Assembly: GCA_019338205.1 (NCBI GenBank)
Contig: GCA_019338205.1_4761.1
Source: a phage
Direction: 5' to 3' (one strand)
DNA length: 64,000 nucleotides
A model generated the notes under the pieces. That model was not told the origin of the DNA and searched no databases. It was given only the letters and a program-made list of their open reading frames with translations. A program made the translations under genes and the position numbers. The number at the start of each line of letters is the position of its first letter. Position 1 is the stretch's first letter. Below, piece by piece: positions 3,137 through 45,417 of this stretch.

Positions 3137-3313
3137 ATGAAAATCTGTATTTGTTGTAAACAACCTGTCGAGGATGCGTTATCCGTCCAGACAGAAAACG
3201 GCGTTGTTCACACTGGCTACTGCTTACAGCTAGTAACAGAACGTTCGATTAGTGAAGATGCGAACGGCGAAGAACAAGAACAACTCGTAGAGCAAACAAT
3301 GCTGTTAATGTAA
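3137..3313 (+). CDS. small Cys-rich protein (58 aa) downstream of uvsY, uvsY.-2 position
   Basis: ATG 3137 with RBS AGGAGG; MKICICCKQP...; below ORF-track length cutoff; position matches T4 uvsY.-2. Confidence 0.35.
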   Translation: MKICICCKQPVEDALSVQTENGVVHTGYCLQLVTERSISEDANGEEQEQLVEQTMLLM

Positions 3314-3346
3314 TTTGTTGATAACCGATTTTAATTGGTTTATTTT

Positions 3347-38854: not shown

Positions 38855-39394
38855 TCATACATCGTTTAATTTGTTAACTTTTGAATCTCTAGATAATGCA
38901 GCGGTGTTATAGGCAATCGCAGCGTCAATTTCATTATCAAATAGACCTAAACGGATTCGTTTTCCATTGGCTCTAATTCTAGCTTCCCACTTTTTGGAAT
39001 TTTTATTCCAATTAACACCAATATATGAAGATGTGCAATCGGATTGTTTATTTTGGTTGTACATTTGTTGAGTAACGGTTGCTGGTCTTAAATTGCTAAC
39101 TCGGTCGTCAAGGGAGTTTGTGTTAATATGATCTATTTGTAGTGGTTTTCTCGGAGTGTGTCCGTGATGCATATGATAAACAACATGAGACCTCTGAAAC
39201 TCTTTACCATCAACAGCAAGTCTCCAATATCTATATCCACATGGATTTATCTTCAATCCACCAACTAGACTTCCGGCTTTAGAACGTCCACGAGAGAACC
39301 TTCTATAAACCTTTCCGTCAACTTCATAAAATAGTTCATGTAGTCTATTATATAAAATTTCATCTTCTTTGGTGTAATGAATTACTTCAATCAT
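38855..39394 (-). CDS. HNH homing endonuclease with C-terminal AP2 DNA-binding domain
   Basis: HNH core ...[35 protein letters not shown]...; AP2-like [40 protein letters not shown]; RBS GAGGG before ATG 39394; inserted between 5.1 and 5.4. Confidence 0.8.
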
Positions 39395-39395
39395 A

Positions 39396-39965
39396 TTATC
39401 CCTCACTTCTTCTAACATAATCTCTTAACTGTTTACTCCACACATCCCAATTTCCAAAAACGGTTTGAGTATAAACTTTCTCTATTGTGTGTTCGGTTAC
39501 TACCGGAGGCGGATTAGTTTCACCAGCACCCTCTCGGCTACTGGAACCACCACTATTTCCTTCACCAGAACCACCAGAAGACTCTGAAACAGATTGGATA
39601 TAGGTTAGGGTTACTTTATAAGTATAAACCTCCTGTAGACGTGTAGGAGCGTTAAAATAATATAGATCTGCGGTAGTTGGATCTGGTAAATCATCAAAAC
39701 TTCCGGCAGATTTTTTAATTCTATCTTTCGTTATATATTTAAGAGAATCCGCGCCAAGCGAAAAACTATCCAGATACTCACCAGATATTTTAGTTTCTTC
39801 AACGGTAACGCCCTTATTAGGGCGATACTCGCTGATCTTAAACTCTTTAATCGTGTATGTGGTATTTGCATCTGGTGGCGTTGCTTTATAAGAGAACACC
39901 ACCTCAAAGATTTCTCGCTCGCTGATATCCTCCAATTTTGAACTCATCGGAAGAATTTCAACCAT
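39396..39965 (-). CDS. conserved hypothetical protein, gp5.1 position (189 aa)
   Basis: Immediately downstream of gp5; Gly/Ser-rich linker SESSGGSGEGNSGGSSS; assignment by position only. Confidence 0.45.
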   Translation of the reverse strand: MVEILPMSSKLEDISEREIFEVVFSYKATPPDANTTYTIKEFKISEYRPNKGVTVEETKISGEYLDSFSLGADSLKYITKDRIKKSAGSFDDLPDPTTADLYYFNAPTRLQEVYTYKVTLTYIQSVSESSGGSGEGNSGGSSSREGAGETNPPPVVTEHTIEKVYTQTVFGNWDVWSKQLRDYVRRSEG

Positions 39966-41784: not shown

Positions 41785-42339
41785 TTACACATCAGCCTTT
41801 TCCATTTCTCGAATGAATGCGTTAATAAATTGTTTAATTTGTGTAGGGTCTATGATCTTGATCTTGCGTCGTTCCTCATTGCGGAGGATCGCATCTTCCA
41901 GTGTGTCTACCGCCGATAATGCACCTTGAAACTGCAAATGACGATGATGAATATCCCCTTTATCATACCAATTGCTTGATCCTTTCGGATATTCTGTAAG
42001 ATTCCAATACTTGTTTCCGTCAATATCAACATGGTATAATACTTGATTTCCTCCTACATTTGCATATCGTTGTTCGGCTGATTCATATGCTGTCTCTTGA
42101 TCGGTGATCCAGTCATGAAACGGATCGTATACGTCATTAAGCATCAGCAAGATCCAGTAAAGTTGTTGGTTTCCGTATACTTCATATGCAACTTGTTCCG
42201 GTCGTGGACTACCTTGAATGTAATATGTTTGTATGTTATAATCAGAAATTATTGCGTTGAAATATGCGCGGTAATTGCGCACAATGTCAGTAATCATCTT
42301 GCCGTTGTATTCAATGGCAGGGAAGAAAGAAAAGAGCAT
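41785..42339 (-). CDS. 53: baseplate wedge protein gp53-like
   Basis: 184 aa (T4 gp53 196 aa); immediately upstream of gp5 on same strand. Confidence 0.6.
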   Translation of the reverse strand: MLFSFFPAIEYNGKMITDIVRNYRAYFNAIISDYNIQTYYIQGSPRPEQVAYEVYGNQQLYWILLMLNDVYDPFHDWITDQETAYESAEQRYANVGGNQVLYHVDIDGNKYWNLTEYPKGSSNWYDKGDIHHRHLQFQGALSAVDTLEDAILRNEERRKIKIIDPTQIKQFINAFIREMEKADV

Positions 42340-42371
42340 TTTATCACCCTCAATTGATAAATAGTATTATG

Positions 42372-42379
42372 TATTTATA
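42372..42379 (-). promoter_or_regulatory. T4-type late promoter (TATAAATA) for gene 53
   Basis: Exact TATAAATA on minus strand 33 nt upstream of gp53 ATG in the divergent region. Confidence 0.5.
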
Positions 42380-42394
42380 ATAAAGGGTGCTAAA

Positions 42395-43090
42395 ATGGAC
42401 TATCAAAAACATTATGATCGATTAATTGAACGCGCAAAGCATAGAACGCTTGAAGGATATAAAGAAAAACATCATATTATTCCTCGTTGTATGGGAGGCG
42501 ATGATAGTCCAGAAAATATAGTTGAGTTAACGGGGTCTGAACATTTTGTTGCTCATCAACTTTTAGCAAAAATGCATCCAACACATCACGGAATTGTACA
42601 TGCGGCGAAAATATTGATGGGGTCTACCAACTATAACAATAAACAATTTGAGTGGGTAAGAAAACTTGCGGTCGAGACTTCAAGAAAATTTCATACAGGA
42701 AGAAAAAGATCCGAAGAGACTAGACGCAGAATATCAGAAGCAACTAAAGGAAAGAGAAAAGGAATTAAATTATCTGAGGAACATCGACAGAAATTATCTG
42801 CTTCATTAAAAGGTAGAGTGTTTACAGAAGAACATAAAAGAAATATTGCGTCAAGAGAAATTACACAAGAATGGAGAGACAACATCTCTAAAGCGGGTAA
42901 GGGTAGAAAGTTGTCACAAGAAAACGTAGAGAAATGGAAACGTATTCATAACACGCCAGAAATGAAACAAAAATATAGTGAATTGTCAAAGTCTCGTCCG
43001 TATTTCACCTGTCCTCATTGTGAAAAAACAGCCAATCAGGGAAATTATGTTAGATGGCATGGTGACAACTGCAAGAAGAAGGTGGTATAA
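42395..43090 (+). CDS. HNH homing endonuclease (Mob-like, NUMOD-type repeats, C-terminal Zn-ribbon)
   Basis: 231 aa; HNH core KHHIIPRCMGGDDSPENIVELTGSEHFVAH; repeated basic modules (GRKRSEETRRRISEATKGK, KLSEEHRQKLSASLKGR); CPHC; inserted between 53 and 4. Confidence 0.75.
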   Translation: MDYQKHYDRLIERAKHRTLEGYKEKHHIIPRCMGGDDSPENIVELTGSEHFVAHQLLAKMHPTHHGIVHAAKILMGSTNYNNKQFEWVRKLAVETSRKFHTGRKRSEETRRRISEATKGKRKGIKLSEEHRQKLSASLKGRVFTEEHKRNIASREITQEWRDNISKAGKGRKLSQENVEKWKRIHNTPEMKQKYSELSKSRPYFTCPHCEKTANQGNYVRWHGDNCKKKVV

Positions 43091-43563
43091 TGGGTAATTG
43101 CAACACATATAAGGGTAAATATAGACCTGAAAACCCGGAGAAGTATAAAGGCGACCTGAAAAAAATCGTCTACAGGTCAAGTTGGGAATTACATATAATG
43201 AAATTTTTAGACCGCAATCCTAGAGTTGCAAAATGGGGATCTGAGACCGTAGTAATTCCTTATGAGTCATCAACAGACGGAAAAAGACACAGATACTTTA
43301 TGGATTTTTACGTTAAGTTTGATGATGGCAAGGAGCATTTATGGGAAGTTAAACCAGCTAAAGAGACAAGGCCACCGGAAAAGCCAAAAAGAATGACCGC
43401 GAAGACAAAGCAACGATATATGCATGAAGTATGGACATACACAAAAAATACTGAAAAATGGTTAGCTGCCGTGAAATTATGCCAAAAGCATAACATGGAG
43501 TTTAAGATCATAACCGAACATGCATTAAAGAAAGTGTTTGGCTTTAAAGGGCTTAACAAATAG
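43090..43563 (+). CDS. 4: head completion nuclease gp4-like (PD-(D/E)xK fold)
   Basis: 157 aa; candidate D...EVK catalytic motif (FMDFYV...LWEVKP); position next to gene 2 as in T4. Confidence 0.55.
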   Translation: MGNCNTYKGKYRPENPEKYKGDLKKIVYRSSWELHIMKFLDRNPRVAKWGSETVVIPYESSTDGKRHRYFMDFYVKFDDGKEHLWEVKPAKETRPPEKPKRMTAKTKQRYMHEVWTYTKNTEKWLAAVKLCQKHNMEFKIITEHALKKVFGFKGLNK

Positions 43564-43574
43564 AGGATAATATT

Positions 43575-44396
43575 ATGAGCGTATTTGAAATAATCACAGA
43601 AGACGAAAAGCCGTCTCCCCAAAAACGAAAGTCTAAACAGTGGGTCGAATTGGGTGTAGAATTTGCGAAAGCAAAAGCCAAAGGCATGACAGCTAAAGCA
43701 TTTGCAGATTCTAAGGGAATAGCCTATGCGACTTTCACTAAAAGTATGTCTCGTTATGCCAGCGAAATTAAAACAGCAATAGAAGTTGAAAAACTAAAAG
43801 GGAAAAGTGCAAAGGGTCTCAATAAGCAGCAACGCGCAATGATGATGATTAATGATTTTCGTGCGTCTATGCGTGCTGTATCAAAGAGTCGTCCTAAAGA
43901 AAAATCACAGGAATGGTTTACTAAAACAATAAAAGCGGGAATAAAGGGACACCAGATTGTAAAACCGCAAGTAGGGCGAATCTATACCTTTATGTATGAT
44001 GCTAAGTATAAAGACACTTTGCCATATTGGGATGTTTTCCCACTGATCATTTGTCTGGGTGATTCTAAGACAAAGGCGGGTAATACTGTAATGCTGGGTC
44101 TTAACTTACACTATGTAACGCCTAAAGCCCGTCAGCAGTTTCTGGAAGCACTTTTAAAGCAATATGCATCTACTCCTACCTTGAGTAATAAAACACGCTT
44201 AAAAATCAAATGGAGCGATGTAAAAGGTATGCGTGGTAGTGACCACATGATCAAAGCATATCTACCGGGACACATTAAAACAAAACTTGTTGAGATTAGC
44301 CCGAAAGACTGGAGCAATATTATCTACCTTAACACATATAAATTTGTTTCTAAAGGTAAAAACTATGATGCAAGGAAGGTGTGGAAGGATGCTTAA
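43575..44396 (+). CDS. 2: DNA end protector protein gp2
   Basis: 273 aa (T4 gp2 274 aa); basic; RBS AGAGGA; synteny 4-2-3-1. Confidence 0.7.
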   Translation: MSVFEIITEDEKPSPQKRKSKQWVELGVEFAKAKAKGMTAKAFADSKGIAYATFTKSMSRYASEIKTAIEVEKLKGKSAKGLNKQQRAMMMINDFRASMRAVSKSRPKEKSQEWFTKTIKAGIKGHQIVKPQVGRIYTFMYDAKYKDTLPYWDVFPLIICLGDSKTKAGNTVMLGLNLHYVTPKARQQFLEALLKQYASTPTLSNKTRLKIKWSDVKGMRGSDHMIKAYLPGHIKTKLVEISPKDWSNIIYLNTYKFVSKGKNYDARKVWKDA

Positions 44397-45417
44397 TATT
44401 AATTCCGTGGGGAGCAATCCCCACGTTTATTATCTTCGTCAACCGGAAGAAATAGAATACAGAGTAAACAAGGTAACAAAATCTCCTAGAGAATTTGCGG
44501 ATAAAGTTATTGAAAGGTGTAAACTTGTCGACCATACATTCTTAGGATTTTCTGGAGAATGGAAAGGAAAATTGACTAGATCTGTTATCCAATGCAATAA
44601 GCATGGAACTGTCTATGATGTTTCCAGTAATAGTTTCTATGCTAAAAAGGTTATTGTTGGTTGCCCTCAATGTAGGGGAGTTATGACAGAAGAGGAAGCA
44701 ACCAAATTCATTGAAGAAAAATGTAAAGATCTTGATTATGAATTTTTGGGATTTGTTGGTGGCTGGAAATCACAAATTACTAAGATGATTCTTAGATGCA
44801 AGAAACATGACCATATTTGGAAGAATACAAAGTTCTTTGATTTTAAAAATCATGGTACATGTGGTTGTAAGAAATGTGCGGCTGAACAATTTAAGACGGA
44901 ATATGTCGTTCCCGTGGAAGATGCACTATCTAGAATAGAAGATAAATGTAAAAAGTTAGGGTATGAATATATAGGTGTCGATGGTGAATGGATAGGTACT
45001 GCAAATTCATGGATAAAACTTAAATGTACAAAACATGACGCAGAATTTTCTGTAAGATATTGTACGTTCAACAGAAATGCTAAAGGGTGTCCGAAATGTA
45101 GTTCTTCTGGCTATCGTCCATCTGAGATGGGATATTTTTATATCCAGACGTTAGATGATAAATTTATAAAGTTTGGTGTAACCAATGAATTACCGGAAAC
45201 CAGAATGAAACAACATATGCAGAAATCTAAGTTTGTTCACAAACTTGTTTACGTCAAACAAAGTGTTGATGGCTGGATTCCGTGGGAACTTGAAAAGGAA
45301 ATAAAGAGAACTTATCATTGTGGCGTTGTTGATAAATCCATGTTGAAAGATGGATACACAGAAACTTTACCAATCACGGAACTTGATAACATAATTAAAT
45401 TAGCTGATACATATTAA
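44389..45417 (+). CDS. three-fold Zn-ribbon repeat protein with C-terminal T5orf172 (GIY-YIG-like) domain
   Basis: Three about 60 aa repeats (FLGF.GEW.G...C.KH...C.C, each ending CPQC / GCKKC / GCPKC) then GYFYIQTLDDKFIKFGVTNE...; start at ATG 44389 (RBS GGAAGG); inserted between 2 and 3. Confidence 0.5.
   Translation: MLNINSVGSNPHVYYLRQPEEIEYRVNKVTKSPREFADKVIERCKLVDHTFLGFSGEWKGKLTRSVIQCNKHGTVYDVSSNSFYAKKVIVGCPQCRGVMTEEEATKFIEEKCKDLDYEFLGFVGGWKSQITKMILRCKKHDHIWKNTKFFDFKNHGTCGCKKCAAEQFKTEYVVPVEDALSRIEDKCKKLGYEYIGVDGEWIGTANSWIKLKCTKHDAEFSVRYCTFNRNAKGCPKCSSSGYRPSEMGYFYIQTLDDKFIKFGVTNELPETRMKQHMQKSKFVHKLVYVKQSVDGWIPWELEKEIKRTYHCGVVDKSMLKDGYTETLPITELDNIIKLADTY

Follow-up and report, generated by a model that had tools for sequence, protein, structure and literature searches.

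We analyzed a window of 64,000 nucleotides from a phage genome that megablast assigns to Krischvirus, that is, to the RB49-like Straboviridae, with ELT4, PTE-Eco09, Brandy, and MIZ2/3/6 as top matches (98.8–99.3%). On the plus strand, between genes 53 and 4, the window carries a MobE-like endonuclease gene of 231 aa with an ATG start (42395..43090), which corresponds to an exact 695-nt insertion compared to RB49-type genomes. Its TAA stop codon (43088–43090) has one base in common with the ATG of gene 4 (ORF 43090–43563), forming a TAATG overlap; both the ORF and its coupling to gene 4 are present exactly as stated in the preliminary description of this DNA. The left neighbour, on the minus strand, is the baseplate wedge gene 53 (41785..42339; Pfam Phage_gp53, 1.4e-58; phrog_232). 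The right neighbour, gene 4, matches the head closure family phrog_218 (3.8e-61) and the Pfam TnsA-like N-terminal domain PF08722 (4.2e-21), and is followed by gene 2 (phrog_429). A tblastn search revealed no paralogues of the endonuclease gene inside the window.

The protein matches phrog_655, annotated as “homing endonuclease,” over residues 1–229 (5.2e-64) and has 1518 homologues at E<=1e-5. T6 MobE shares 41% identity with it over residues 1–229 (E 1e-44) and has the same three modules in the same order, while MobE homologues adjacent to nrdA occur throughout the tblastn list at ~40% identity. The first module, a predicted HNH catalytic core of the beta-beta-alpha-metal kind at residues 21–57 (42455..42565, plus strand), has conserved E24, H26, H27, N41, H50, and H54. 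An alignment of 72 homologues shows no variation at E24, H26, H27, C32, G35, N41, H50, C206, and H222 and almost none at H54, C209, and C226; the protein thus displays the His-His...Asn...His (His) motif of the HNH nuclease superfamily. The Pfam HNH models score below their gathering thresholds (PF01844, 14.7 vs 21.4 bits; HNH_5, 15.4 vs 27.5; HNH_4, 13.6 vs 22). However, a profile of the homologue alignment reaches the HNH domains of McrA (E 8.7e-4), of Cas8-HNH, and of a group II intron maturase, all aligned on the motif E-HH-x-P...GG-D...N...L...H. Since the profile reaches the McrA HNH domain, the low Pfam scores reflect divergence from these models and not a missing motif. The AlphaFold model (pLDDT 91.8) places core strands at residues 24–27 and 42–45 and a helix at 47–60.

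The middle module (residues 101–202; 42695..43000, plus strand) consists of basic helical DNA-binding repeats of the NUMOD3 type. Pfam NUMOD3 (PF07460) matches two stretches above its gathering score (29.4 vs 20.4 bits), and most homologues have a precomputed match to the same family. In the model, this region folds into six helices (107–117, 128–138, 145–152, 158–168, 175–185, and 188–199), each headed by S/T-x-E, and the period S/T-x-E-x-x-R/K-x-x-I/L-S can be followed in the sequence as well as in the model. The repeated basic NUMOD-type modules noticed earlier are therefore real, but the C-terminal zinc ribbon proposed with them has to be replaced. Residues 203–227 (43001..43075, plus strand) contain conserved C206, C209, H222, and C226 in a predicted beta-beta-alpha arrangement, spaced C206-x2-C209-x12-H222-x3-C226, and give weak matches to CTCF zinc fingers. 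According to the model, this zinc module is a C2HC finger; its C-x2-C-x12-H-x3-C ligands rule out a ribbon, which would have two CxxC knuckles and four cysteines. T6 MobE also ends in a zinc module.

Sequence and fold searches gave no significant match to any solved homing endonuclease. The sequence search of the PDB with the single protein found no true relative, its best match, a collagen adhesin, being a low-complexity artefact, and the whole model gave weak fold matches, as expected for an elongated, modular protein. No NCBIfam family matched this endonuclease or either of the two companion nucleases described below.

The spacer between gene 53 and the endonuclease gene (55 bp, 42340..42394) is identical to that of RB49 and KFS-EC, differs by one mismatch from that of JEP8 and Cognac, and is the same in genomes with and without the endonuclease gene. 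The gene had been placed inside the divergent promoter region between genes 53 and 4; instead, it begins at the former start codon of gene 4 and leaves the spacer unchanged. A motif scan detected a perfect T4-type late motif, TATAAATA, on the minus strand only (42379->42372), pointing at gene 53, and GATAAATA on the plus strand of the spacer (42356–42363). Also on the plus strand, a sigma-70-like TTGATA-16-TATAAT (42354–42381, 11/12 matches) points at the endonuclease gene and gene 4, and the ribosome-binding sequence AAGGGTG (42383–42389) lies ahead of the endonuclease gene. Because its start is the former gene 4 start codon, the endonuclease gene would use the upstream signals of gene 4. The spacer would now supply its predicted transcription and translation start signals to the endonuclease gene instead of gene 4.

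A new translation start region for gene 4 (43079..43092, plus strand) is found within the last endonuclease codons, where AAGGTGG (43079–43085) is followed by TAATG (43088–43092). Gene 4 is now predicted to be translated from this ribosome-binding sequence, aided by the stop/start overlap. Hairpins hiding the ribosome-binding site, in the style of I-TevI or Aeh1 mobE, were found at neither start (z-scores +0.8 and +1.4), and the endonuclease ORF contains no internal terminator like that of T4 mobE.

To judge whether the gene belongs to the phage core, presence and absence were compared across relatives, as the preliminary description had suggested. The gene is present in 6 of ~57–60 Krischvirus records; the remaining records align as two pieces that omit the ORF. 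RB49, Phi1, JSE, GEC-3S, ECD7, KFS-EC, and MIZ4/5 lack it, and the flanks of RB49, Phi1, JSE, GEC-3S, and KFS-EC match the window at ~99% identity. The endonuclease ORF of ELT4 and of the window begins precisely where gene 4 begins in RB49 and Skers, and the insertion, placed at the ATG of gene 4, amounts to exactly 695 nt. Genomes with and without the gene are interleaved, with MIZ2, MIZ3, and MIZ6 on one side and MIZ4 and MIZ5 on the other, and likewise the window against KFS-EC. This comparison favours a mobile gene, and a conserved core gene is not what was seen. Like MobE, the gene stands free between other genes and is sporadic among near-identical genomes (6/60). Together with the full-length homology to MobE, this distribution agrees with the selfish HNH nuclease proposed earlier.

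Judged by its sequence, the ORF is a predicted free-standing HNH homing endonuclease gene of MobE type, selfish and accessory, with no part in the head or baseplate machinery. As an ordinary representative of a well-known class, it will not surprise a specialist; near-identical copies in ELT4 and MIZ2/3/6 are already annotated as “homing endonuclease” in GenBank.

The insertion is accompanied by a one-sided footprint. To its left, no mismatch to RB49 was found over 200 nt. To its right, the first 118 nt of gene 4 (43090..43207, plus strand) are a foreign segment with 42 mismatches to the RB49/KFS-EC type. These mismatches span nt 6–118 and fall in 14 synonymous and 11 nonsynonymous codons; even the bases immediately 3' of the ATG differ (ATGGGTAATTGC vs ATGGGAGGATCT). 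The rest of gene 4, which encodes the head completion protein (43208..43563, plus strand), belongs to the resident backbone, with 0/356 mismatches compared to KFS-EC and 3 compared to RB49, and the gene as a whole is intact in the window. The variant 5' segment goes strictly with the endonuclease gene: all six carriers have it at an identity of at least 98.7%, while the 51 non-carriers reach at most 76.1%. A variant allele, or donor tract, in the flank that is linked to the nuclease gene is again a MobE-like trait.

The lack of left mismatches, the sharp right boundary, and the linkage (6/6 vs 0/51) together argue that the moving unit comprises the 695-nt gene and the first ~118 nt of gene 4, with gene 53 outside it. 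This is the pattern that would be expected if the endonuclease cuts the neighbouring gene and repair copies the stretch from the cut to the endonuclease gene. Nucleotides 1–118 of gene 4 would then be a putative cleavage-resistant allele as well as the minimal co-copied tract. A search for the donor of this segment gave nothing above 76% identity outside the six carriers. The segment still encodes an N-terminus of the Krischvirus type (MGxxNTYKGK) and is similar to the JEP8 allele over nt 97–121, which suggests that the donor was probably an unsampled Krischvirus-like lineage.

Homologues with ~52–62% identity immediately precede gene 4 in Gaprivervirus UPEC07, Tegunavirus TG1, Tulanevirus Aeromonas phage 25, and Jiaodavirus KpV477, and also in three metagenome contigs. 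Members without the gene are documented in three genera. Our comparison showed that Jiaodavirus and Gaprivervirus are each polymorphic, most members lacking the gene; for Tulanevirus, the record of Aeromonas phage 25, a phage with a different local gene order, states “not conserved in 44RR.” An IMG/VR scan added few close relatives besides TG1 and Pectobacterium phage PM2, most matches being 25–40% identical and in unrelated contexts. Between the Jiaodavirus phages KpV477 and KP179, 29 mismatches fall in the first 90 nt of gene 4, after which divergence returns to background; between UPEC07 and ECML-359 the diverged tract is longer (~430 nt). The Jiaodavirus and Gaprivervirus copies compared arrive with 50–70 nt of upstream DNA specific to them, so that the left junction varies. 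In T-even-type genomes, the endonuclease frame extends 11–22 nt beyond the gene 4 ATG.

PM2 has a decayed copy at the same site (L013, 2501–3021), in which residues 1–113 and 187–227 are kept and the NUMOD3 region is deleted. With 71% identity across the N-terminal 113 residues, this relic is a snapshot of a degenerating homing endonuclease gene. Further homing endonuclease genes were observed in T-even-type relatives between genes 4 and 2 or just past gene 2, in UPEC07 (L004, 4441–5115) and in Yersinia phage P8 (L011, 1602–2249); the N-terminal 103 residues of the window protein share 49% identity with the UPEC07 copy. Overall, homing endonuclease genes favour the 53-4-2-3 region.

A +1 frameshift interrupts gene 4 itself, just past the YRSSWE codons, in six lineages from other genera that carry the endonuclease gene. 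It was located in TG1 (L005, 3186–3310), KpV477 (L007, 3186–3300), KEN25_1 (L010, 1897–2010), PM2 (L013, 3032–3130), L093 (~3189–3300), and L094 (~3201–3320). The sequence reads TGG GAR CRR TTT plus 1 nt and continues with V/M-M-R/K-W-L-D in the next frame, dividing gene 4 into ~37–42 and 117 codons. In KpV477 a second, compensating −1 shift leaves 15 codons scrambled; in KP179, which lacks the endonuclease gene, gene 4 is intact. An internal GGGAG-N7-ATG in the frameshifted genes could start the C-terminal piece. This frameshifted gene 4 is the most unusual sight among the related carriers, but it is not in the window.

Gene 4 is also mosaic within Krischvirus, even in phages without the endonuclease gene. 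In Cognac, the RB49 allele changes to a ~22% diverged allele exactly at nt 99/100. JEP8 has a ~24% diverged segment from nt 32 to ~390 that is confined to gene 4, with flanks at least 99% identical.

We propose gene 4 nt ~95–120 as a candidate recurrent break site and target of the endonuclease, since the end of the foreign segment, the Cognac breakpoint, and the +1 frameshifts all converge there. The equivalent of this presumed hot spot in the window (nt ~95–118; 43184..43207, plus strand) is situated just 3' of the conserved YRSSWE codons. It forms the right-hand end of the foreign segment and has the densest nonsynonymous cluster (R34L, W35H, Q38K, and W39F). At this position JEP8 and the window have WELHIMKFLD in common, and JEP8 is therefore predicted to be cleavage-resistant; the left breakpoint of JEP8, at nt 31/32, is away from the proposed hot spot. 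Aeromonas phage 25 has a homologue, yet keeps an RB49-like sequence across the YRSSWE codons, so that the target may lie elsewhere or the specificity may vary between clades. Given the PF08722 match of gp4 to the N-terminal domain of TnsA-like endonucleases, the presumed target gene encodes a nuclease-fold protein itself.

On comparative evidence, we consider it likely that the gene encodes a free-standing MobE-type HNH homing endonuclease that spreads by nicking or cutting the RB49-type gene 4, followed by recombinational repair. By analogy with MobE, in a mixed infection with a relative lacking the gene, the protein would bind DNA through its NUMOD3 helices and C2HC finger, and the HNH site would nick or cut the RB49-type gene 4 at nt ~95–120. 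Recombinational repair off the carrier genome would then bring in the endonuclease gene along with the part of gene 4 between it and the cut. In the carrier itself, that part would be too different to be cut.

A homing endonuclease could instead recognize a target spanning the insertion point, that is, the ribosome-binding site and start codon of gene 4. Immunity would then come from splitting of the site, as with intron-encoded enzymes, and the diverged 118 nt would be passive, co-transferred donor DNA. The insertion is indeed exact at the ATG, the bases just downstream differ between ATGGGTAATTGC and ATGGGAGGATCT, and the JEP8 mosaic segment starts near the gene start (nt 31/32). We nevertheless find this version unlikely, because the end of the segment at nt 118, the Cognac breakpoint at nt 99/100, and the frameshift in six lineages cluster ~100–118 nt into the gene and not at the ATG. 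Moreover, the left junction, with its 50–70 nt of own upstream DNA, is not conserved in other genera, and the related MobE cuts ~120 nt into its downstream gene. MobE nicks T2 nrdB, the gene downstream of it, at nt 122–126, and recombination points map to nt 1–189 of nrdB (PMC2790892).

The six carriers are ~99% identical within the endonuclease gene, and its possession could thus reflect one acquisition followed by descent or recombination, and not ongoing homing. The gene might even be an inactive or decaying relic, immobile and kept only for the translation start region that it provides to gene 4. Such genes do decay, as the PM2 copy without residues 114–186 illustrates, and T4 I-TevIII is known to be defunct (PMC2790892). 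Furthermore, the gene 4 ribosome-binding sequence lies within the 3' end of the endonuclease gene, so that an imprecise deletion would harm an essential gene. A relic nonetheless seems improbable to us: the ORF is full-length and retains all conserved catalytic and zinc-binding residues, the fold prediction is confident, and the interleaving of carriers and non-carriers at ~99% flank identity points to recent gain or transfer. Finally, the gene would share a transcript with gene 4 and is tied to its translation, gp4 has a TnsA-like nuclease fold, the product of gene 2 protects DNA ends, and homologues hold the same position in several genera. Even so, a conserved, nonselfish partner for genes 4 and 2 in head completion and packaging, comparable to the HNH terminase helpers of cos phages, is very hard to credit, as is a T4-like core gene, because the distribution is sporadic (~90% of Krischvirus and most Jiaodavirus and Gaprivervirus genomes, all viable phages, lack the gene), the closest characterized relative is a homing enzyme, and site-specific homing explains the position.

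Returning to homing with cleavage inside gene 4, a broader version may be put forward tentatively: the nuclease and a resistant gene 4 start (~100–120 nt) could form one unit that crosses Straboviridae genera and has repeatedly remodelled the essential gene 4 at one hot spot after YRSSWE. In the window, this would have left gene 4 intact with a recoded start, and the dependence of an essential gene on the 3' end of a selfish one could slow the loss of the latter. The +1 frameshift of the six carrier lineages might confer immunity by altering the cleavage site, in which case production of gp4 would require either two polypeptides or ribosomal frameshifting.

Three selfish nuclease-like genes had been reported within 7 kb of the structural module. 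Both companions exist and are sporadic (7/60 and 11/59), although the third is better described as CapR/GIY-YIG-like. An HNH_3 + AP2 endonuclease gene (38855–39418, minus strand) lies between genes 5.1 and 5.4 and occurs in 7 of 60 relatives; W115 and GEC-3S appear to have a different, longer HNH gene at this position. The other companion (44389–45417, plus strand), present in 11 of 59 relatives, encodes a CapR-repeat endonuclease of 342 aa (phrog_681, 2.2e-79). This protein contains three CapR-homology repeats, shows a weak GIY-YIG signal at its C-terminal end, and gave no match to T5orf172, the family named before. Its gene shares 8 nt with the end of gene 2, and its listed TTG start at 44287 is probably too far upstream. 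The genes assort independently: MIZ6 has the MobE-like gene only, and KFS-EC has the HNH-AP2 gene without the MobE-like gene. Hence, three nuclease genes in a 7-kb stretch come and go independently among RB49-like phages, in agreement with the earlier picture of a selfish nuclease cluster in the structural module.

The insertion is exact, the foreign segment of 118 nt ends sharply, and linkage is perfect, which makes the locus a clean natural example of probable free-standing endonuclease homing. It also yields a testable target prediction (RB49-type gene 4, nt ~95–120) for a clade of MobE relatives located before gene 4 in several genera. When T4-like phages, therapeutic or environmental, infect the same cell, enzymes of this kind influence marker exclusion and mosaicism.

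Phage HNH endonucleases of the I-HmuI and I-TevIII type combine an HNH module with extended modular DNA-binding regions, as the window protein does, and I-HmuI, like MobE, nicks one strand. Enzymes of this type are encoded within introns, in contrast to the free-standing gene of the window. The annotated “HNH homing endonuclease” genes of Aeromonas phage 25, Yersinia phages TG1 and phiR1-RT, Klebsiella phage KpV477, and Escherichia phage UPEC07 occupy the same position directly before gene 4 and are 52–61% identical to the window gene product, and sequence comparison places these homologues and the window gene in one apparent site-specific clade. TG1 and KpV477 differ from the window in having a frameshifted gene 4. 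The closest parallel is MobE of T4, T6, and LZ7, a free-standing HNH enzyme encoded between nrdA and nrdB (Wilson & Edgell 2009, PMC2790892), to which the window protein is 41% identical over its whole length. Both proteins have an N-terminal HNH module, NUMOD3 repeats, and a C-terminal CPHC...H...C finger. Both genes are free-standing, have no promoter of their own, and share a one-base stop/start overlap with a neighbour; both are sporadic among close relatives and sit immediately upstream of a conserved gene with a polymorphic 5' region. They differ in site (nrdA|nrdB vs 53|4) and in presumed target (nrdB vs gene 4). The window gene also lacks an internal terminator, unlike mobE, and it comes first in its transcription unit, so that here the host gene is coupled to the endonuclease gene and not the reverse.
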